The notes under the pieces are model-generated. The model did not search any database, was not told where the DNA came from, and saw only the letters and a list, made by a program, of their open reading frames with translations. The translations under genes were made by a program, and so were the position numbers. A stretch of DNA of 44,108 nucleotides. Origin: a virus. How positions within the stretch are numbered: position 1 is the first letter of the stretch; each line of letters opens with the position of its first letter. Location: UHGV virus genome UHGV-0106768. The stretch is one strand, 5' to 3'. Positions 15,939 through 38,132 of the stretch are shown here, piece after piece.

Positions 15939-16114
15939 ATAAATAAAAACAATAGAAAAGATAAGAAGAATAGAGGATTTTCACTGATTTGAACCATTAC
16001 CCATTTTGCACTGTTTTGAACCTTGCCCGATGCTGTCACTGACAAAGAGTGTGTAAGCGACAAAGCGTGGCAAGGTCAAAATCCAACGATCAATCATGCA
16101 GGAGGAACAAGAAT

Positions 16115-17209
16115 ATGAGAATCATCACTTCAGAACAGGTATCCGCAGGACACCCCGACAAGATCTGTGACCAGATCGCAGATGCTATCGTGACCGACTG
16201 CCTGCAGCATGACCACAACAGCCGTGTCGCCATCGAGTGCCTTTTCAAGAACCGCTTCCTTGTGATCGCCGGTGAACTGACCAGCACCCATGAGCCCGAC
16301 TACAAGGCACTGGTGCAGAGCGTGTTTGACCGCATCAACAACGGCGGAGCAGAGAGTACCGATGCAGGTTTTGATTACAAGCTGGATTTCACAGCCGATG
16401 ATCTGGACATTGCGATTCTGGTCGATCACCAGAGTAGCGACATTGCCCTCGGTGTGAATACCGGCGGTGCAGGAGATCAGGGTATGATGTACGGCTATGC
16501 GACCAACGAAACGCCGGAGATGCTCCCGATCCCCTTCGTGCTGGCTACCAGATTTCTGGAACTGCTGAAAGCCTACCCCTGCCGTATGCTGAAAGCCGAC
16601 GCAAAGGCACAGGTCAGCTATGACTATGACAGCGGTCGCATTACCACCTTCCTCTGCTCGGTGCAGCATACACACGATGTGGATGTTGAGGACTTCAAGC
16701 CCATCATCGAAAAGCTGATGGTGAGAACGGCAACCGAATACGGGCTGAATACAGACTTTGCAAAGCTCGTCAACCCGACCGGCAGATTTGTCATAGGCAG
16801 TTCCTTTGCGGACTGCGGCGTTACCGGACGCAAGCTCGCCTGCGATACCTATGGCGGTATCGGGCATATCGGCGGCGGTGCAATGTCCGGCAAAGATCCG
16901 TCTAAGGTTGACCGCAGCGGCGCATATGCAGCAAGAAAAATCGCAAGGGATATCGTCAGTGCCGGATATGCGGATATGGCAGAGGTGCAGATCGCATATG
17001 CCATCGGCGTGGCAGAACCCGTATCCGTGTATGTGGAAACCTTCGGCACGGAGCATCAGGATACGGAGTTCATCAGCCAGTATGTCCGTGAGAACTACGA
17101 CCTGACACCGAGAGGTATCATTGAAGGACTGCATTTGCTGGATGTGGACTACAACGCTGTTTCCGCATACGGACACTTCGGAAAACAGAACCTTCCGTGG
17201 GAACTATAA
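16115..17209 (+). CDS. metK: S-adenosylmethionine synthetase
   Basis: GGAGGA RBS. SAGHPDKICDQIADAI, GAGDQGMMYGYA and GGGAMSGKDPSKVDRSGAY motifs. Confidence 0.9.
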   Translation: MRIITSEQVSAGHPDKICDQIADAIVTDCLQHDHNSRVAIECLFKNRFLVIAGELTSTHEPDYKALVQSVFDRINNGGAESTDAGFDYKLDFTADDLDIAILVDHQSSDIALGVNTGGAGDQGMMYGYATNETPEMLPIPFVLATRFLELLKAYPCRMLKADAKAQVSYDYDSGRITTFLCSVQHTHDVDVEDFKPIIEKLMVRTATEYGLNTDFAKLVNPTGRFVIGSSFADCGVTGRKLACDTYGGIGHIGGGAMSGKDPSKVDRSGAYAARKIARDIVSAGYADMAEVQIAYAIGVAEPVSVYVETFGTEHQDTEFISQYVRENYDLTPRGIIEGLHLLDVDYNAVSAYGHFGKQNLPWEL

Positions 17210-22005: not shown

Positions 22006-22319
22006 GAGCCAGACTGAAACCGCCGGGAGATGCCGTTCGCTGCGATGCCTGCGGATGTGCCTTTGTGCCGGAGCCGAAAATGCAGCGTGAGGGCGAGATC
22101 GAATACAGCTTCTTCAACTGTGATTACTGTGGCAAAGCGTATATCGTGTCTGTGACCGATGCCGCACTCCGCCGGAGCATCCGCAAGTACCGGACGCTTG
22201 CCGAAAAGCTGAAGGACAAGCCGCTGAGTGAAGAAACGCTCCGTGAAGTCACGGCGCTGAAGGATGCGAACACAAAAAGAGCCGCAGAGCTGCGGCAGAT
22301 GTATATACGGGAGGGATGA
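22002..22319 (+). CDS. Hypothetical zinc-ribbon protein
   Basis: CDACGCAF...CDYCGKAY pairs. ATGA overlap with nrdG. Confidence 0.55.
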   Translation: MRARLKPPGDAVRCDACGCAFVPEPKMQREGEIEYSFFNCDYCGKAYIVSVTDAALRRSIRKYRTLAEKLKDKPLSEETLREVTALKDANTKRAAELRQMYIREG

Positions 22320-22320
22320 G

Positions 22321-23592
22321 ATGAAAACAGCAGAACTTCGCATGATCCCTGTCTCGGAACTGAAGCCTGCGGAATACAACCCGCGTAAAAAGCTGAAGCC
22401 CGGCGACAAGGAATACGAGAAGATCAAAAACAGCATCGAGGAATTCGGTTTTGCCGACCCTTTGGTAGTCAACGCCGATATGACCATCATCGGCGGACAT
22501 CAGAGACTGACCGTAGCGATGGCGCTCGGCTACACGGAAGTTCCGTGTGCGGTGGTAGACATCGACAAGGTTCGTGAGAAGGCACTGAACATCGCACTGA
22601 ACAAGATCACGGGTGCGTGGGACGAGAACCTTCTTGCTGAACTTCTGGAGGATATTCAGAACAGTGATTTCGATCTTGGCAAGACCGGCTTTGACCCGCC
22701 GGAGATCGAGCAGCTTTTCAATCAGGTACACGATAAGCAGGTCAAAGAGGACAGCTTCGATGTGGAGGAGGAGCTTCAGAAACCGACCTTCTCTCAGCCG
22801 GGAGATACCTGGATCCTCGGCAGGCACAGAGTCATCTGCGGCGACAGCACAGTTGCGGAGACATACACAAAGCTGATGGACGGACAGAAAGCAAATCTCG
22901 TCCTGACGGACCCGCCTTACAATGTGGATGTTGAGGAGACCGCCGGCAAGATCATGAACGATAACATGAGCGACAGCGATTTCTACAACTTCCTGCTTGC
23001 CGCCTATAAGTGTATGTATGACAGTCTTGCCGATGACGGCAGCATCTATGTATGGCACGCCGACACCGAGGGGCTGAATTTCAGAAAGGCATTCAAGGAC
23101 GCAGGATTCCAGCTTTCCGGCTGCTGTATCTGGAAGAAGAATTCGCTGGTGCTCGGGCGCAGTCCTTACCAGTGGATCCATGAACCGTGCCTGTTCGGCT
23201 GGAAGCAGAAGGGCAAGCATCAGTGGTACGCCGACCGCAAGCAGACGACCGTCTGGGAATACGACAAGCCGAAAAGCAGTCCCGATCATCCGACCACAAA
23301 GCCCATCCCGCTGATGGCGTACCCGATCAAGAACAGCACCATGACAAACGGCATCGTCCTCGATCCATTTCTCGGCTCTGGCTCTACGCTGATCGCCTGC
23401 TGTGAGACAGACCGTGTCTGCCGGGGCATCGAGCTTGACCCGAAGTTCGTGGATGTCATCGTGAAACGTTACCTCGCATGGTGTCAGGAGAAGCAGACCG
23501 CAGAGGTCGCATATGTTCTCCGTGACGGCCAGAAGCTGTCATACGAGGAAGCGATTGCAGTAATGCCGCAGGACGGTGATGCTGTTGAGTGA
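22321..23592 (+). CDS. ParB-like nuclease domain fused to an N6/N4 DNA methyltransferase
   Basis: N-terminal ParB/Srx pattern (IPVSELKPAEYNPRK...IIGGHQRL). LVLTDPPYNVD motif IV. C-terminal DPFLGSGST motif I. Confidence 0.88.
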   Translation: MKTAELRMIPVSELKPAEYNPRKKLKPGDKEYEKIKNSIEEFGFADPLVVNADMTIIGGHQRLTVAMALGYTEVPCAVVDIDKVREKALNIALNKITGAWDENLLAELLEDIQNSDFDLGKTGFDPPEIEQLFNQVHDKQVKEDSFDVEEELQKPTFSQPGDTWILGRHRVICGDSTVAETYTKLMDGQKANLVLTDPPYNVDVEETAGKIMNDNMSDSDFYNFLLAAYKCMYDSLADDGSIYVWHADTEGLNFRKAFKDAGFQLSGCCIWKKNSLVLGRSPYQWIHEPCLFGWKQKGKHQWYADRKQTTVWEYDKPKSSPDHPTTKPIPLMAYPIKNSTMTNGIVLDPFLGSGSTLIACCETDRVCRGIELDPKFVDVIVKRYLAWCQEKQTAEVAYVLRDGQKLSYEEAIAVMPQDGDAVE

Positions 23593-23935
23593 AGTAAAAT
23601 GCGTTCTCATACACGACAATTTCCAGAATTACAAGGGCTACAGCATTCCGAGGGCACAGCTCGTCATTGCGGATATCCCGTATAACATTGGCGGAGATTT
23701 TTACGCAAGTCGCCCGGACTGGTATGTGAATGGCGACAATCAGAACGGCGAAAGCAGCAAAGCGCACAAGGCGGCATTCCACACGGACTACTCTTTCAAC
23801 ATCGCTGAGTATTTCGCATTCTGCAACCGACTGCTCAAAAAGGAACCGTCCAAAGGTGAAAAGGATGCTCCCTGCATGATCATGTTCTGCGCCTTCCAGC
23901 AGATCCCGGAGGTCATCCGGCAGGCGGAGAAATAA
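23579..23935 (+). CDS. N6/N4 DNA methyltransferase, upstream part (motif IV), ends at an in-frame TAA
   Basis: LVIADIPYNIG is a DPPY-type motif. The frame continues open past TAA 23933-23935. Confidence 0.65.
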   Translation: MLLSEVKCVLIHDNFQNYKGYSIPRAQLVIADIPYNIGGDFYASRPDWYVNGDNQNGESSKAHKAAFHTDYSFNIAEYFAFCNRLLKKEPSKGEKDAPCMIMFCAFQQIPEVIRQAEK

Positions 23936-23965
23936 GGCTTCAAGCACTACCAGTTTTTATGCTTT

Positions 23966-24352
23966 ATGAAGAACTACAGTCCGCAGGTGCTGAAAGCAAA
24001 CATGAGGATCGTTGGTGCTACCGAATATGCGCTGGTGCTGTATCGGGGCAAGCTGCCGAAGTTCCGCAATACCGATGCGGACGGCAAGCGGCACATGATC
24101 TTCGACCATTTCGACTGGGTGCGGGACGGCAAAGATATCCCGAAGATACATCCAAGCCAGAAGCCGGTGAATCTGCTGAAGCGCCTGATTGGGATATTTA
24201 CCGATGAGGGCGATGTGGTCATCGACCCCTGTGCGGGTTCAGGAAGTACACTGAGAGCCGCAAGAGAAATGGGACGCAACAGCTACGGCTTTGAGGTCAG
24301 CAGGGATTTCTATACCAAAGCCCGTGAGCAGATGCTCGGAGGTGCGGAATGA
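23966..24352 (+). CDS. N6/N4 DNA methyltransferase, downstream part (motif I)
   Basis: HPSQKPVNLLKRLIGIFTDEGDVVIDPCAGSGSTLRAA. Same frame as 23579..23935 and open from 23936 (GFKHYQFLCFMKNY...). Confidence 0.65.
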   Translation: MKNYSPQVLKANMRIVGATEYALVLYRGKLPKFRNTDADGKRHMIFDHFDWVRDGKDIPKIHPSQKPVNLLKRLIGIFTDEGDVVIDPCAGSGSTLRAAREMGRNSYGFEVSRDFYTKAREQMLGGAE

Positions 24353-24594
24353 CGAAACAGGAATGTGCCATCGTGACAGCGTACACAGGGTTCGCTATGC
24401 TGAAGGGCAGCGACCTGAAATATCTGTACAATTATCTCTCCGGTCTCATCGGCAGGCCGGTGTATTCACACGAGATCCCTGCGGTCGCAGAAGCCTGCAA
24501 GGAACAAATACGAGAAGATTTCCTTGCCCTGTGCAGGAACGCAAAGGAGGCGGATGATGGATCATACAACAATGACGCTCGGCAGTCTGTTTGA
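24349..24594 (+). CDS. Hypothetical protein
   Basis: ATGA overlap with the upstream gene. 81-aa ORF. Confidence 0.5.
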   Translation: MTKQECAIVTAYTGFAMLKGSDLKYLYNYLSGLIGRPVYSHEIPAVAEACKEQIREDFLALCRNAKEADDGSYNNDARQSV

Positions 24595-26848
24595 CGGCTC
24601 CGGGGGCTTTCCGCTTGGTGGCATCCTCGCAGGGATCGAGCCAAGGTGGAGCAGCGAAATTGAACCTTTTCCGGTGCTTGTCACGCACAAGCGGCTGCCG
24701 CAGGTGCAGCACTACGGTGATGTATCTACGCTGAACGGCGCAGAGCTTCCGCCGGTGGATATCATCACCTTAGGCAGTCCTTGTCAGGACCTGTCTATTG
24801 CGGGCAAGCGTGCCGGAATCCATGACGGTGATCGGTCGAACCTGTTCTTTCAGGCGATCCGCATCATCAAAGAAATGAGGGATGCAACAAATGGACGATA
24901 TCCGCGATACTGCGTCTGGGAAAATGTCCCCGGCGCTTTCTCATCCAACGGAGGAAACGACTTCAAGGCTGTCCTCGAAGCAGTTATCGGAGTTAAAGAA
25001 AAAGGGATCGAGGTGCCTGCGCCTGAAAATCACAGATGGGCAAAATCAGACGTATATCTGGGAGACGGATGGAGCGTGGCTTACCGAGTTTTCGATGCTC
25101 AATACTGGGGTGTCCCCCAACGCAGAGCAAGAATCTACCTTGTCGCAGATTTTGCTGGCGAAAGTGCCGGAGAAATACTATTTAAGTCCGAAGGCGTGTC
25201 TTGGTATACTCCGCAGGGCTTCCGTGCGTGGCAAGGAGCTGCCGGAGGTGCTGAAGAAGGCACTGGAGAAACAGGCGGGCGGTCTGACGCTGGAGGTGGA
25301 ACCCTCTGCCTGAATACACAGGGCAACAGCGGCGTCGGCATCACCGAGGACAAGGCTCTCGCACTGGTCGCACAGGATCACGGGAATCATCCTGCCGTTC
25401 TTGCCGCAGGTTTTTCCACAGAGCATAGTGCAAAAGCACGCAGCATCGGATACGAGGAGGAAGTCTCCCCGACACTGAGAGCAGGTGTTGTTCCTGCGGC
25501 ACTCTCGGTCGAAAACCATCCGACAGACGGTCGTGTGAAGATCCGTGAGGACGACACCTGCCAGACACTTTGCAGCAGAGCCGGGACGGGCGGCAACAAT
25601 GTACCGCTTGTCGCTGAACCGATCACGCTGAAAATCAGGTCAGGCTGCGAAGGCGGCGGCAAGGGCGCTCTCTGGCAAACTGATAAATCTGCTACGCTTG
25701 CTACCAACAACAACCAGACACTCTTTCAGCCAGAGATCAAAGCCTTCGGTGTATGTAGCAAGCATTCCAATGCGATGATGTCAGACAATCCGCACAGTGG
25801 CTTTTACGAAGCGACCACGAGCAGAACGCTTGACCAGAGCGGTGGAAACTCCGTAACATCGAATCAGGGCGGCATCTGCGTGGTAGCACCTGCGCCGGAG
25901 ACATTCGATGTGCGTTTCACATCGGACGGCACGAAAAATGCTCGTGGGCATTGTTACCCGACAGACATTTCCCGATGCCTTGATACGAGCGAGGGATCGC
26001 CAGACTCGAATCACGGCGGTGTCGCTGTGGTGGCTCTTGAACCGGGGGCTGCATCACGTGTCGGCGGTCATGTGTACAGTGACGGCAAAAGCGGTACGCT
26101 TCGAGCCAATGCCGGCGATAATCAGCAGGCTGTTGTGGTCGCCGAGCCGGAGACCTATGCTCTGCAAGGCTCGATGATCGGTCGTGCCGACAAGAACGGT
26201 CCGCAGGGTGACGGCATCAATGAGGATGTGTGCTTTACGCTCAATACTTCAGACAGGCACGCTATTGCCGCACCCGATCCGTCTTTCACGATTTCCCGTG
26301 ACAATCACTTCGCCGTTTCGGAAGATATATCTGTTACGGCAGTTGCGAGAGGTCCTGCAACGGTCGCAGCCCCGGCAGATCACTACTGCACAAGCAAGAA
26401 TTCACACCACACGGTCGCTGTGCATGAGCAGGCAAACACGCTGGTCGCATCCGACTGGAAGGATCCGCCGCTTGTGAACGACCTTCCGAATGACGAGCCG
26501 GTATATATCGTAAGAAGGCTGACTCCGGTGGAGTGCGCCAGATTGCAGGGATTCCCGGACTGGTGGTGTGCCGACCTTGCGATTCCTGATCCTTCTGACG
26601 AGGAGATCGCCTTCTGGATGGAAGTATGGGAAACTTGGAGACAGATCACAAATCCCAAGGGCAAACCGAAAACGGAAAAGCAGATCCGCAAATGGCTGGC
26701 TAATCCGTACACGGACAGTGCCGAGTACAAGTTATGGGGCAACGGTGTCTCAGAGCCCGTTGTGTTCTTCGTGCTATCCGGCATTGCCTGGGCGGCACAG
26801 AATTCTGAAACTAATGCAGCAAATTGTGAACATTCTGATACTATGTAA
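24554..26848 (+). CDS. dcm: DNA (cytosine-5) methyltransferase with a variable region of about 450 aa made of tandem TRD-like repeats (probably multispecific)
   Basis: Motif I LFDGSGG, IV GSPCQDLS, VI WENVPG, VIII QRRARIYLVADF, IX RRLTPVECARLQGFP, X GNGVSEPV. AAGGAGG RBS before ATG 24554. Confidence 0.9.
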   Translation: MMDHTTMTLGSLFDGSGGFPLGGILAGIEPRWSSEIEPFPVLVTHKRLPQVQHYGDVSTLNGAELPPVDIITLGSPCQDLSIAGKRAGIHDGDRSNLFFQAIRIIKEMRDATNGRYPRYCVWENVPGAFSSNGGNDFKAVLEAVIGVKEKGIEVPAPENHRWAKSDVYLGDGWSVAYRVFDAQYWGVPQRRARIYLVADFAGESAGEILFKSEGVSWYTPQGFRAWQGAAGGAEEGTGETGGRSDAGGGTLCLNTQGNSGVGITEDKALALVAQDHGNHPAVLAAGFSTEHSAKARSIGYEEEVSPTLRAGVVPAALSVENHPTDGRVKIREDDTCQTLCSRAGTGGNNVPLVAEPITLKIRSGCEGGGKGALWQTDKSATLATNNNQTLFQPEIKAFGVCSKHSNAMMSDNPHSGFYEATTSRTLDQSGGNSVTSNQGGICVVAPAPETFDVRFTSDGTKNARGHCYPTDISRCLDTSEGSPDSNHGGVAVVALEPGAASRVGGHVYSDGKSGTLRANAGDNQQAVVVAEPETYALQGSMIGRADKNGPQGDGINEDVCFTLNTSDRHAIAAPDPSFTISRDNHFAVSEDISVTAVARGPATVAAPADHYCTSKNSHHTVAVHEQANTLVASDWKDPPLVNDLPNDEPVYIVRRLTPVECARLQGFPDWWCADLAIPDPSDEEIAFWMEVWETWRQITNPKGKPKTEKQIRKWLANPYTDSAEYKLWGNGVSEPVVFFVLSGIAWAAQNSETNAANCEHSDTM

Positions 26849-34992: not shown

Positions 34993-35466
34993 ATGGCTCA
35001 GAGAGGCAGAAAACCAACGCCTACGGCGATCAAAGAGCTGGAAGGCAATCCGGGCAAGCGTCCGCTGAATGATGCAGAGCCGAAGCCGGAACGCAAGGCA
35101 CCGCCCTGTCCGAAGTGGCTGGAGCCCGAAGCAAAAAAGGAATGGCGCAGGCTGTCAAAGCAACTGGAGCAGATTGGTGTGCTGACCGAGGTCGATCAGG
35201 CGGCATTCGCATCCTACTGTCAGGCATACGCACGATGGAAAGAAGCCGAGGAATTCATGACCCAGCACGGCACGATCGTAAAAACAAAATCAGGTTACTG
35301 GCAGCAGGTTCCGCAGGTATCCATTGCGCAAACTTATCTGAAGATCATGAACAAGATCGCAGAGCAGTTTGGCCTGACCCCGGCGGCAAGAAGCCGTATC
35401 ACTGCCGGCGCAGATATGAAAAACGCTGCCGTTGACGATATGGATGAACTTCTCGGAGGTGGCTGA
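34993..35466 (+). CDS. terS: Terminase small subunit, P27 family
   Basis: MAQRGRKPTPTAIKELEGNPGKRPLN N-terminus typical of the P27 family. GGAAGGAG RBS. Confidence 0.85.
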   Translation: MAQRGRKPTPTAIKELEGNPGKRPLNDAEPKPERKAPPCPKWLEPEAKKEWRRLSKQLEQIGVLTEVDQAAFASYCQAYARWKEAEEFMTQHGTIVKTKSGYWQQVPQVSIAQTYLKIMNKIAEQFGLTPAARSRITAGADMKNAAVDDMDELLGGG

Positions 35467-38132
35467 TGGCGAGAACGGCAAAGGCAAGAGAAAGACCTGC
35501 CAACTATCCGAAACTGAAGGATTATAAACCGACACGCTTTATGCTGCCGGAATCGCACTACGATGCGGCAAAGGCTGACCGAGCTGTGCGGTTCATCGAG
35601 AATCTCTGCCATACCAAAGGACGCTGGGCAGGCAAACCGTTCTGGCTGCTTCCGTGGCAGGAACAGATCATCCGGGATATTTTCGGCATCGTCAAAGAGG
35701 ACGATATGCGGCAATTTCGTACCGCCTATGTCGAAATTCCAAAGAAAAATGGGAAGCAGCTTGCACTGGATACACCGATCCCGACTCCGCAGGGATTCAC
35801 CAATATGGGAGATCTGAAGGTCGGAGATACAGTATTCGATGAAAACGGCATTCCGTGCCATGTGGTTGCGAAAAGTCCTGTGGATGATACAGAGCAAGCC
35901 TACAAGCTGACCTTCAAGGACGGCACCTCGATCATTGCCGGGGAAAGGCATCTGTGGAACTGTCAGTATATTTACGGCAAACGCAAGGATGTTCTCTGGA
36001 CGACCGGCGAGATCTATCGCAGGACAACGGAATACAGACAGCGTTTTTCCGACAGACCACAGACAAAGCGGGATTCCCTTATCCGAATTCCGGTGTGCGG
36101 TGTCCTTCAGACAGAAGCGGCAGTTTTACCGATTGATCCGTATCTGTACGGCTACTGGCTCGGAAACGGTAATGTGACCATGCCGGAGATCACTGTTCGG
36201 ACGGAGGATGTCGAGGATATCATCTCGAATATTCCGTATAAGGTACACAACCGTTATCCGCAGAAATGCGGCGGCAGTGAGATCATAAAGTACAATGAAC
36301 TGAAAGCAGTACTACTTGACAGCTTCCGTGAAAAGAAGATCCGACCAGAATATCTGAGGGCATCCGCAGAGCAGAGATGGGCATTACTGCAAGGGCTTAT
36401 GGATTCGGACGGCTGTATCGGTGAACGCAAAGGGCAAAGTGTGTATGTCACAACGCTGCGAGAGCTGGCGCTTTCCGTCAGAGAACTGCTGTGGTCACTC
36501 GGCATCAAAAATGCAGTGAAATGTGAGCCTTCTACACGGCATGGGTGGCCGACCGGCGAGATTTTGTATATCGTCCGTTTTACAACCTTTGATGACCAAC
36601 CGACATCAAGGCTTAAACGCAAAAATACACGCACACAGGCGCGGTTAAAGGAAACTCGCTCCTGTTTTCATTATCTGCTGGATATTCAACCTGTAAATCA
36701 TCCTGTAAAAATGCAGTGCATTCAGGTGGACAGTCCGAGTCACCAATATCTCGCAGGACCGTCATTTGTGCCTACGCACAACAGTGAGCTTGCAGCGGCA
36801 ATTGCACTGTATCTGCTCTACGCCGACAACGAGCCGTCTGCTGAGGTCTACGGCGCTGCTGCTGATCGTGGGCAGGCATCCATTGTATTCGATGTCGCCA
36901 AAAGAATGGTTGAGATGACACCGGCACTTCTGAAACGCTCAAAAATCATGGCGGCGACAAAGCGTCTGGTGAATTACAGTAATGTTGGCTTTTATCAGGT
37001 GCTTTCAGCGGAAGTCGGTACAAAGCACGGATTGAATGTATCCGGTCTGGTTTTGGATGAACTTCATGCCCAACCGAACCGCAGCCTTGTGGATGTTCTC
37101 ACAAAGGGTTCCGGTGATGCCCGTACTCAGCCGCTGTACTTCCTGATCACAACCGCCGGAACGGATCGCAACAGCATCTGCTACGAGTATCACACGAAAG
37201 CAAAAGATATTCTGGACGGCAGGCGCATTGATCCGTCCTTCTATCCTGTGATCTACGGCTTGAACGATGATGACGACTGGAACGCAGAGGAGTCATGGTA
37301 TAAGGCAAATCCCTCGCTCGGATACACTATCGCCATCGACCGAGTCCGCGATGCTCACCGGGAAGCCCTTACAAATCCCGCTGAAGAAAATGTATTCCGT
37401 CAGCTGAGGCTTGACCAGTGGGTAGGCAGTGCGGTGGCATGGATTCCGGAGCATATCTACGACAGGGGCAATCTTCCGATCGACCTCGAAAAGCTCCGGG
37501 GACGGGAGTGCTACGCAGGTCTTGACCTATCCAGCACATCGGATATCACGGCATTTGTGCTGGTGTTCCCTCCGCTGCATGACGGCGAGAAATACATCGT
37601 TGTCCCGCACTTCTGGCTGCCGAGAGAAACGCTCGATTTACGAGTACGGCGAGACCATGTTCCCTACGATGTATGGGAGCGCATGGGATTATTTCATATC
37701 ACCGAGGGCAATGTGGTCGATTACAATTTCGTGCGGAAAACGATCAACGAGCTGCACACGATGTACAACATCAAGGAAATTGCTGCCGACCGCTGGAATG
37801 CCACACAGCTTATCACAGACCTTGAGGGAGACGGATTTACCGTTGTTCCGATGGGCATGGGCTTCAAGGATATGTCCCCGCCGATGAAGGAACTGTACAA
37901 GCTCATACTCGAAGGGCAGTTTATCCACGGCGGCAACCCTGTACTCCGCTGGATGGCAGGAAATGTGGTCGCTGAAATTGATGCAGCGGAGAACATCAAA
38001 CCAAGTAAAAAGAAAAGTACAGAAAAGATTGACGGTATCGTGGCATGGATCATGGCACTTGACCGCTGCATCCGCCACGAAATGCAGGGCAGTGTCTATG
38101 ACGAACCCGGCCACGATCTTGTGGTCATCTGA
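35466..38132 (+). CDS. terL: Terminase large subunit interrupted by an intein in the Walker A motif
   Basis: PKKNGK / SELAAAIALYLL flank the insert. Walker B LVLDELH. C-terminal nuclease region. ATGA overlap with terS. Confidence 0.9.
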   Translation: MARTAKARERPANYPKLKDYKPTRFMLPESHYDAAKADRAVRFIENLCHTKGRWAGKPFWLLPWQEQIIRDIFGIVKEDDMRQFRTAYVEIPKKNGKQLALDTPIPTPQGFTNMGDLKVGDTVFDENGIPCHVVAKSPVDDTEQAYKLTFKDGTSIIAGERHLWNCQYIYGKRKDVLWTTGEIYRRTTEYRQRFSDRPQTKRDSLIRIPVCGVLQTEAAVLPIDPYLYGYWLGNGNVTMPEITVRTEDVEDIISNIPYKVHNRYPQKCGGSEIIKYNELKAVLLDSFREKKIRPEYLRASAEQRWALLQGLMDSDGCIGERKGQSVYVTTLRELALSVRELLWSLGIKNAVKCEPSTRHGWPTGEILYIVRFTTFDDQPTSRLKRKNTRTQARLKETRSCFHYLLDIQPVNHPVKMQCIQVDSPSHQYLAGPSFVPTHNSELAAAIALYLLYADNEPSAEVYGAAADRGQASIVFDVAKRMVEMTPALLKRSKIMAATKRLVNYSNVGFYQVLSAEVGTKHGLNVSGLVLDELHAQPNRSLVDVLTKGSGDARTQPLYFLITTAGTDRNSICYEYHTKAKDILDGRRIDPSFYPVIYGLNDDDDWNAEESWYKANPSLGYTIAIDRVRDAHREALTNPAEENVFRQLRLDQWVGSAVAWIPEHIYDRGNLPIDLEKLRGRECYAGLDLSSTSDITAFVLVFPPLHDGEKYIVVPHFWLPRETLDLRVRRDHVPYDVWERMGLFHITEGNVVDYNFVRKTINELHTMYNIKEIAADRWNATQLITDLEGDGFTVVPMGMGFKDMSPPMKELYKLILEGQFIHGGNPVLRWMAGNVVAEIDAAENIKPSKKKSTEKIDGIVAWIMALDRCIRHEMQGSVYDEPGHDLVVI
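35757..36782 (+). mobile_element. Class-3-like intein (Gln1, Trp-Cys-Thr triad) with LAGLIDADG homing endonuclease in terL
   Basis: Starts QLALDTPIPTPQGF and ends FVPTHN followed by Ser. Block B is GERHLW (W codon 35955-57). Block F is MQCIQVD (C codon 36717-19). Block G is PTHN. LAGLIDADG-like YGYWLGNGN and LLQGLMDSDG. Confidence 0.8.

Follow-up and report, generated by a model that had tools for sequence, protein, structure and literature searches.

Ten putative target-recognition modules in a phage C5-cytosine methyltransferase whose gene also carries a conserved +1 reading frame

How many different DNA sequences can one cytosine methyltransferase be built to recognise? The question is raised by a gene in the virus genome UHGV-0106768, a stretch of 44,108 nucleotides that we call the window. 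The gene encodes a predicted C5-cytosine DNA methyltransferase (C5-MTase) in which 453 amino acids (aa; 25154-26512) separate catalytic motifs VIII and IX. A sequence-only reading of the window had taken this region for about nine tandem units resembling target-recognising domains (TRDs), and the protein for a probable highly multispecific enzyme. Our own answer is related to that one, and we would put its probability at roughly 55%: the gene specifies an orphan phage multispecific C5-MTase with ten small target-recognising modules on one catalytic core. Beneath the start of the same region lies a second reading frame, which raises a question of its own.

A modular array between motifs VIII and IX

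The catalytic part of the protein is familiar. Set against M.HhaI and M.HaeIII, two monospecific enzymes of solved structure, and against 113 homologues, motifs I (FxGxG), IV (PCQ), VI (ENV), VIII (QxRxR), IX (RxLTxxE) and X (GN) keep their canonical order, and the only Pfam match of the protein is PF00145 (E 3.9e-37). Homologues begin at the second Met, at 24557. M.HhaI and M.HaeIII have a single TRD of ~80-100 aa; the predicted product here follows the canonical C5-MTase plan, with the VIII-IX region greatly enlarged.

That region is full of T-L dipeptides. There are ten of them where 1.8 would be expected, a number reached in 0 of 20,000 shuffles. To describe the region we built 17 module hidden Markov models (HMMs), ten from the window protein and seven from further cassette types found in relatives. 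Annotated in this way, the window protein reads M1 to M10 without a gap: ten contiguous modules of 32-53 aa, each with a (T/C/A)-(L/I) anchor that appears to be followed by a Gly/Asn/Ser turn and then a hydrophobic strand. In the 113 homologues, which are 47-99% identical, conservation of the anchors T307-L308, T338-L339, T381-L382, T425-L426, T562-L563 and L630 is complete or at least 90%, and the array has dozens of invariant positions. The composition is rich in Gly, Ala, Ser and Thr, with few aromatic or large hydrophobic residues.

Much of the sequence-only reading holds up against this anatomy. It had placed motif VIII at 25118 and motif IX at 26513, which is exact, and all nine of the peptides it quoted are present where it put them. 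The T-L array is real as well, although the HMMs from homologues count ten modules and not nine. The list had passed over aa 576-607, our M9, whose anchor is T579-I580. Its first unit was centred on T250-L251, a pair that is not conserved and belongs to a hypervariable linker; the anchor of M1 is A270-L271, and the register is fixed by the alignment of ITEDKALALVAQDH with INEDVCFTLNTSDRH and with TLRAEAH in the homologues, a window around T250 being out of register in hhalign. Nor is the whole of 25154-26512 TRD-like, as had been proposed: the first ~50 aa (25154-25303) are linker.

The modular description rests on homologues because direct internal similarity of the protein is mostly at noise level. 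No tandem or direct repeats exist in the array at the DNA level. When hhalign was applied to families of T-L-anchored units, the pair 425/475 reached 99.9% and 307/515 reached 92.6%, with 338/515 and 475/515 at ~60% and all other pairs weak; anchoring on T-L biases hhalign toward in-register matches, so the weak values mean little. M9 has FTISRDNHFAV where M8 has the similar FTLNTSDRHAI. An iterative profile search of the T-L units is circular, and we do not use it as evidence.

The relatives show the modules coming and going. Twelve proteins that are 82-100% identical differ almost entirely by clean insertions or deletions of 32-43 aa, most of which carry a T-L of their own (HAVGIDGYNAAVTDDTAATLGVNCGMSTGRNGILQ and VPFVKGTRPHSAEEGQTWKPGEVANTLNTFDVGESRCNELVVE are examples). 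Among these twelve, the SGTLRAN unit is gone from one and aa 576-607 from two. Additional cassettes (XA, XB or XD) occur in the natural variants P0042, P0085 and P0052. More distant relatives, at 47-67% identity, combine these module types as mosaics. Applied to 234 unique variable regions (200-693 aa), the HMMs account for a median of 81% of each region and define 73 architectures, which are collinear, vary by presence and absence, and contain 5-13 modules per protein. In 50 unique phage genes, M6, M7 and M9 are facultative, with occupancies of 0.53, 0.48 and 0.36. Natural variants that differ by a single module show clean loss or gain, in genes that are still under selection.

How strong that selection is can be read from a codon alignment of the same 50 genes, using the ratio of diversity at third positions to the mean at the first two, pi3/mean(pi1,pi2). 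The catalytic halves give 2.55 and 2.65. The modules give 1.9-4.5, and every one of them is under purifying selection. Across the linker, aa 201-250, the ratio is inverted, at 0.73.

The family is also large. More than 8000 homologues are present in a 90%-clustered database, and a search with the variable region against representatives of 50%-identity clusters returned 2968 matches at E<=0.001, 1172 at E<=1e-10 and 163 at E<=1e-30. Close homologues come from metagenome-assembled genomes of Oscillospiraceae and Ruminococcus and from Caudoviricetes, and a 100% identical gene lies on a 54.6-kb IMG/VR contig. The sequence-only reading had called the protein an extreme case. Within a family of thousands, with 5-13 modules and variable regions up to 693 aa, it looks typical and no outlier. 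The family is apparently uncharacterised: the literature searched yielded no characterised member, and nothing on many-TRD C5-MTases of gut phages.

In several assemblies of mouse-gut Lachnospiraceae the sequence stops, or turns into something unrelated, at one shared point shortly before motif VIII of the homologous MTase, ~100 nt upstream of the match (…LYIIFRFTL, then AQFWG…). This suggests a repeated or mobile element inserted upstream of motif VIII.

From modules to specificities

Are the modules TRDs? The natural place to look is the multispecific enzymes of Bacillus phages, and we took the sequences of the phi3T, SPR, rho11s and H2 enzymes as our comparison set. M.phi3TI, M.SPRI, M.rho11sI and M.H2I are, like the window enzyme, phage-borne orphans with one catalytic core and, from motif VIII to motif IX, contiguous units of ~40-50 aa, every one with its T-(L/V/I) anchor. 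The layout analogy drawn in the sequence-only reading is therefore borne out by all four. The difference is one of scale: 2, 3, 4 and 4 units (phi3T, SPR, rho11s and H2, respectively) in VIII-IX regions of 179-272 aa, against ten in 453 aa. The catalytic cores are distant, at 34% identity over 162 aligned columns, and whole-protein hhalign aligned the catalytic N terminus alone, so sub-alignments were used. The titles of papers on these enzymes speak of 'triple sequence specificity' for SPR and call the H2 enzyme 'multispecific'.

One module can be matched to this set. M8 aligns with the last unit of the Bacillus phage enzymes, EPAFTVNTIDRHGVA, with an hhalign probability of 85% (E 6e-6), and BLAST matches aa 469-582 to H2 330-443 with E 3e-5 in this small set of four enzymes. 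M10 has ANTLVASDWK where SPR has SHTLSASDWR, a 10-aa match of E 1.9 in the four-sequence set and a resemblance at most. As to position, T629-L630 of M10 stands where monospecific C5-MTases have their T-L, ~20-25 aa upstream of motif IX, the counterpart in M.HhaI being T250-L251 of that enzyme.

The TRDs of the Bacillus phage multispecific enzymes act independently and have been experimentally deleted and exchanged by Trautner, Noyer-Weidner and colleagues. The cassette variation in the window family mirrors those experiments in nature. Units in the Bacillus enzymes are at least as many as specificities, with equal numbers in phi3T and SPR and an excess in rho11s (two specificities) and H2 (three) that is described as pseudo-domains; inactive pseudo-domains are described in the rho11s and SPbeta enzymes. 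M.(phi)BssHII, a C5-MTase from a Bacillus stearothermophilus prophage, has five specificities, the most known to us. Compared by its description, it resembles the window family in being multispecific and prophage-borne, and differs from the contiguous array between VIII and IX found here. Closer in their cores are Dmt of phage P1 and the Dcm-like MTases of Vibrio, Pseudomonas, Mycobacterium, Streptococcus and Roseobacter phages, which belong to the same core subfamily, share (E/A)(I/V)LFE.EG after motif VIII and have several T-(L/V) units. Their arrays are shorter than the window array, and P1 Dmt is fused to a Dam domain.

On the model of M.SPRI, M.phi3TI, M.rho11sI and M.H2I, the modules would dock on the catalytic core singly, each presenting its own DNA target. 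Several unrelated short sequences would then be methylated on replicating phage DNA before packaging, and several host restriction systems would be blunted. Modules gained, lost, duplicated and exchanged as cassettes in this family of Clostridia phages and prophages would tune the spectrum of protection, and the phage would probably be protected from many restriction enzymes at once.

The genome has the look of one that needs such protection. GGCC occurs 28 times in the window against 176 expected, an observed/expected ratio (O/E) of 0.16 that makes it the most avoided 4-mer palindrome. Across the whole window CCWGG stands at ~0.2, CGCG at 0.32 and ACGT at 0.37, and AAGCTT, CTCGAG, CCATGG, GAGCTC, GGCGCC, GTGCAC and TTCGAA are near zero. 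Because so many palindromes are strongly avoided, the phage appears to be under heavy restriction pressure. GATC, TCGA and AGCT, at an O/E of ~1.0, and GCNGC, at 0.8-1.0, are not avoided, which makes them candidates for sites protected by methylation.

Several results weigh against ten working TRDs. Against the Bacillus phage units, hhalign gives each of the other nine modules less than 20%, and none has a detectable counterpart in a characterised TRD. Similarity between modules is weak, units 5 and 6 alone being clearly above shuffles in direct protein comparison. AlphaFold2 on the full-length protein, with the 113-sequence alignment, returned a mean predicted local distance difference test (pLDDT) of 39, and ~22 over aa 213-675, so that TRD folds could not be counted. 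In sequence searches of the PDB with the whole protein, M8 and M10, the catalytic motifs alone were matched, the modules reaching only motif IX. M1-M5, M8 and M10 are present in 93-99% of the 50 unique phage genes, which suits scaffold as well as TRD. And GGCC, which the Bacillus enzymes sharing the M8-like unit methylate and which we would assign to that unit, is avoided, an unexpected result if methylation protects GGCC. The multispecificity put forward at the outset is thus well motivated by anatomy, cassettes, selection and the homology of M8, and is weakened by nine of ten modules with no detectable TRD homology.

Among the other explanations, a narrower enzyme fares best, though we consider it rather unlikely. 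It would have one to three active TRDs, M10 with the facultative M6, M7 and M9 for example, and near-universal modules that are scaffold or pseudo-domains. The occupancies suit it, with variation in the phage genes confined to M6, M7 and M9, as do rho11s and H2, whose four units give two and three specificities, and the continued avoidance of GGCC, CCWGG, CGCG, ACGT and many 6-mer palindromes is what narrow protection would leave behind. Yet the 'constant' modules are individually missing in the wider family, in architectures such as XB-M5-M8-XF-M10 and M1-XB-M4-M5-M8-M10, and purifying selection as strong on all modules as on the catalytic core is unusual for relics.

Could the array instead be one composite DNA-binding domain that wraps DNA and reads a single long or degenerate target, or methylates cytosines almost nonspecifically? 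An MTase of relaxed specificity would likewise serve anti-restriction, short strand-turn repeats of Gly/Asn-rich composition are compatible with a repetitive fold, and no single module could be modelled with AlphaFold2. We nevertheless find this improbable: clean loss and gain of 32-43-aa modules in proteins 90-97% identical, together with the 73 architectures, point to structurally autonomous modules, and M8 is homologous to a unit of enzymes whose TRDs act independently. A disordered spacer, serving as a flexible tether or as a protein-interaction region, would account for the very low AlphaFold confidence and the scarcity of aromatic and large hydrophobic residues, but dozens of invariant positions in 113 homologues, purifying selection in every module, the lack of any other candidate for the TRD that an active C5-MTase needs between VIII and IX, and the quite different look of the truly unconstrained stretch, aa 201-250, make it very improbable indeed.

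We return, then, to a multispecific enzyme, and to its likely reach. Part of the array, probably the near-universal M1, M2, M5 and M10, may consist of scaffold or pseudo-domains, and the number of specificities is for that reason likely to be below ten, while at least three. If the modules are active TRDs, the gut and rumen phages and prophages of Clostridia hold a natural combinatorial library of cytosine-methylation specificities. That would explain how such phages cross many restriction barriers, would affect methylation-based linking of phages to hosts in metagenomes, and would offer compact, swappable recognition modules for engineering writers of 5-methylcytosine. Being facultative, M6, M7 and M9 open the one-module-one-motif hypothesis to direct test.

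A conserved peptide in the +1 frame

What keeps the linker as it is? Between the end of motif VIII and roughly aa 240, the codon pattern in 27 non-redundant loci is flipped: most variation falls on position 1 of the main frame, which is position 3 of the +1 frame, and main-frame positions 2 and 3 hardly vary. Past the +1 stop the usual pattern returns. Over the linker it is the +1 frame, not the MTase frame, that is under purifying selection, and because codon-position diversity is inverted there, the amino acid sequence of the linker is dictated by the overlapping frame. Selection in the +1 frame is confined to the last ~60 codons of the open reading frame (ORF) at 24882-25313. Measured from stop to stop, the open run covers 133-166 codons in 81 loci; upstream the frame stays open for 82-112 codons, which is mildly non-random by synonymous resampling (combined p ~2e-4). 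Its likeness among relatives upstream of motif VIII, such as 'RTSP' from ENVPG, is a by-product of main-frame conservation. Antisense coding was considered and rejected, since that frame, aligned by codon, is interrupted by stops in 69 of 123 unique segments and the substitutions in it are non-conservative.

The peptide, ~47 aa long, travels widely. In eight sequences from four phyla, over 23 codons, the +1 frame is 69% identical and the MTase frame 37%. A tblastn search with it finds 138 phage and 532 plasmid records, the plasmids mostly P1-like with a Dmt annotated as 'Dam family'; it occurs also in 421 IMG/VR loci and in more than 585 loci of bacterial genomes. Its hosts are C5-MTase genes of phages, prophages and plasmids from Bacillota, Pseudomonadota, Actinomycetota and marine Alphaproteobacteria, dmt of P1 among them. 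Wherever this was checked it lies +1 relative to motif VIII, in Streptococcus phage Javan105, P1, a P1-like plasmid, phages of Vibrio, Pseudomonas, Roseobacter, Enterobacter and Mycobacterium, and 78 of 78 genome loci; an in-frame fusion version was found in none of these 78 bacterial loci. Mycobacteriophage Thibault has the +1 frame annotated as a separate gene, gp104, of 81 aa, and PHROG 16143 matches the +1-frame ORFs of Roseobacter and Mycobacterium phage genes.

In cluster-J mycobacteriophages (the Thibault locus at 335-2136, the NihilNomen locus at 1559-2676), the homologous C5-MTase is split into one gene for motifs I-VIII and another for TRD, IX and X. An HNH endonuclease gene breaks up the Thibault copy still more, and the +1 peptide survives there.

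What the peptide is can be said in outline. AlphaFold predicts three helices (pLDDT 62), and Foldseek with this model found nothing in the PDB. Pfam has no match for it, and a simulated +1 fusion gained nothing in PF00145 score. A conserved ATG, Shine-Dalgarno sequence or slippery site for the +1 frame was not found; a TTG in that frame is invariant. The peptide resembles the 'L..ILE..V.EKYYLS' element that lies in frame behind motif VIII of other C5-MTases, and in the Bacillus phage enzymes it resembles LREILEEYVDEKYYLSEE at that place (z ~4). There LREILEEYVDEKYYLSEE is in frame and no +1 frame is open; here the similar element is in the +1 frame alone.

We think it probable that the gene is dual-coding, and that this basic, helical peptide is translated and functionally tied to the MTase, whether by +1 frameshifting, which would produce a motif I-VIII isoform with a tail, or by internal initiation. 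In addition, all ten modules may be active TRDs, and the enzyme would then hold the largest set of specificities known for a single MTase. The peptide appears to be undescribed so far: we found no description of a +1 ORF in C5-MTase genes in the literature searched. The nearest parallel is the 'ShiLan domain', an HNH endonuclease out of frame in actinophage methylase genes, where the host frame reads through as a tolerated loop (PMC11855218). Both are ORFs hidden in the other frame of a phage methylase gene. The ShiLan domain, however, is a sporadic mobile nuclease insertion, whereas the +1 peptide is no insertion, has no nuclease motif and keeps a fixed position in four phyla. If we are right, it is an ancient overlapping coding sequence in a well-studied class of enzymes, present even in phage P1, and it raises the question of recoding or internal initiation in its expression.

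The gene in its phage

A Pfam scan of its ORFs identifies the window as a tailed-phage genome (coordinates of features are in Table 1). Its replication and nucleotide genes encode a family A DNA polymerase, a D5-type primase-helicase, an SNF2 helicase, a PD-(D/E)XK protein, NrdD and NrdG; its packaging and head genes encode small and large terminase, portal, ClpP protease and an HK97-type capsid.

Table 1. Coordinates of the C5-MTase gene, its motifs and modules, the +1 frame and neighbouring genes
Feature	Position	Strand	Details	Basis
C5-cytosine DNA methyltransferase, coding sequence	24554..26848	+	764 aa	ORF list, translation, PF00145, >8000 homologues
Motif I LFDGSGGF	24587..24610	+	S-adenosylmethionine binding; aa 12	M.HhaI alignment; invariant in 113 sequences
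Motif IV GSPCQ	24773..24787	+	catalytic Cys77 (PCQ aa 76)	aligned to HhaI PCQ; invariant
Motif VI ENVPG	24920..24934	+	ENV aa 123	M.HhaI/M.HaeIII alignment; 113-homologue alignment
Motif VIII QRRARIYLVADF	25118..25153	+	aa 189	translation; M.HhaI/M.HaeIII alignment
Main-frame linker	25154..25303	+	aa 201-250; G/A/E-rich; not conserved in MTase frame; not a TRD unit	inverted codon-position diversity; 31-36% gaps at end
Module M1	25304..25402	+	aa 251-283; LCLNTQGNSGVGITEDKALALVAQDHGNHPAVL; anchor A270-L271 (T-L in homologues)	HMM, alignments
Module M2	25403..25504	+	aa 284-317; anchor T307-L308, invariant	HMM, homologue alignment
Module M3	25505..25618	+	aa 318-355; anchor T338-L339; duplicated in some relatives	HMM, close relatives
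Module M4	25619..25732	+	aa 356-393; anchor T381-L382, invariant; further T358-L359, T389-L390	HMM, homologue alignment
Module M5	25733..25891	+	aa 394-446; anchor T425-L426; near-universal in family	HMM, alignments
Module M6	25892..26035	+	aa 447-494; anchor C475-L476; M5 paralogue; facultative	hhalign 99.9% to M5; occupancy
Module M7	26036..26146	+	aa 495-531; anchor T515-L516; facultative; cleanly absent in P0110	HMM, relatives
Module M8	26147..26278	+	aa 532-575; ...GINEDVCFTLNTSDRHAIA; anchor T562-L563; homologous to EPAFTVNTIDRHGVA unit of phi3T, SPR, rho11s, H2	BLAST, hhalign
Module M9	26279..26374	+	aa 576-607; anchor T579-I580; facultative; absent in P0073 and P0105	HMM, relatives
Module M10	26375..26503	+	aa 608-650; anchor T629-L630; 25 aa before motif IX	HMM, homologue alignment
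Motif IX RRLTPVECARLQGFP	26513..26557	+	aa 654	translation; alignment; PDB sequence search
Motif X GNGVS	26738..26752	+	GNG aa 729	G729, N730, G731 invariant or nearly so
+1-frame peptide STLSQILLAKVPEKYYLSPKACLGILRRASVRGKELPEVLKKALEKQ	25134..25274	+	~47 aa; over motif VIII end and linker	codon-position selection, cross-phylum identity
Whole +1-frame ORF	24882..25313	+	143 aa; ATG 24882 to TGA 25311-25313	ORF list
S-adenosylmethionine synthetase, phage-encoded MetK	16049..17209	+		three S-AdoMet_synt Pfam domains
ParB_N and N6/N4 DNA methyltransferase fusion	22264..23592	+		Pfam
Second N6/N4 methyltransferase	23576..24352	+	in-frame TAA at 23933-23935	Pfam

The C5-MTase gene is one of three DNA methyltransferase genes that lie, together with the MetK gene a few kb further upstream, ahead of the packaging genes. 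A phage MetK suggests a raised supply of S-adenosylmethionine for self-methylation, and the avoidance of palindromes, the three MTases and the synthetase suit a phage under heavy restriction pressure that both avoids sites and methylates its DNA. No nuclease domain was found in the scanned ORFs adjoining the C5-MTase gene, which encode MTases, a DUF7736 protein and an acidic protein with no Pfam match; among these neighbours, the C5-MTase is predicted to be an orphan phage enzyme with no cognate restriction endonuclease. A scan for promoters and terminators was uninformative.

Three smaller features of the neighbourhood deserve a record. The DUF7736 ORF (24349-24594), flanked by the N6 and C5 methyltransferase genes, runs ~40 nt into the start of the latter. 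The second N6/N4 methyltransferase is interrupted by its single in-frame TAA (…RQAEK, stop, GFKHYQF…), both halves sharing one frame, and could be a pseudogene, a sequencing error or a case of readthrough. Finally, the large terminase (35466-38132, 888 aa) has a LAGLIDADG_3 match at aa 303-370, upstream of its ATPase and nuclease domains, a segment that may be an intein or a homing-endonuclease insertion.

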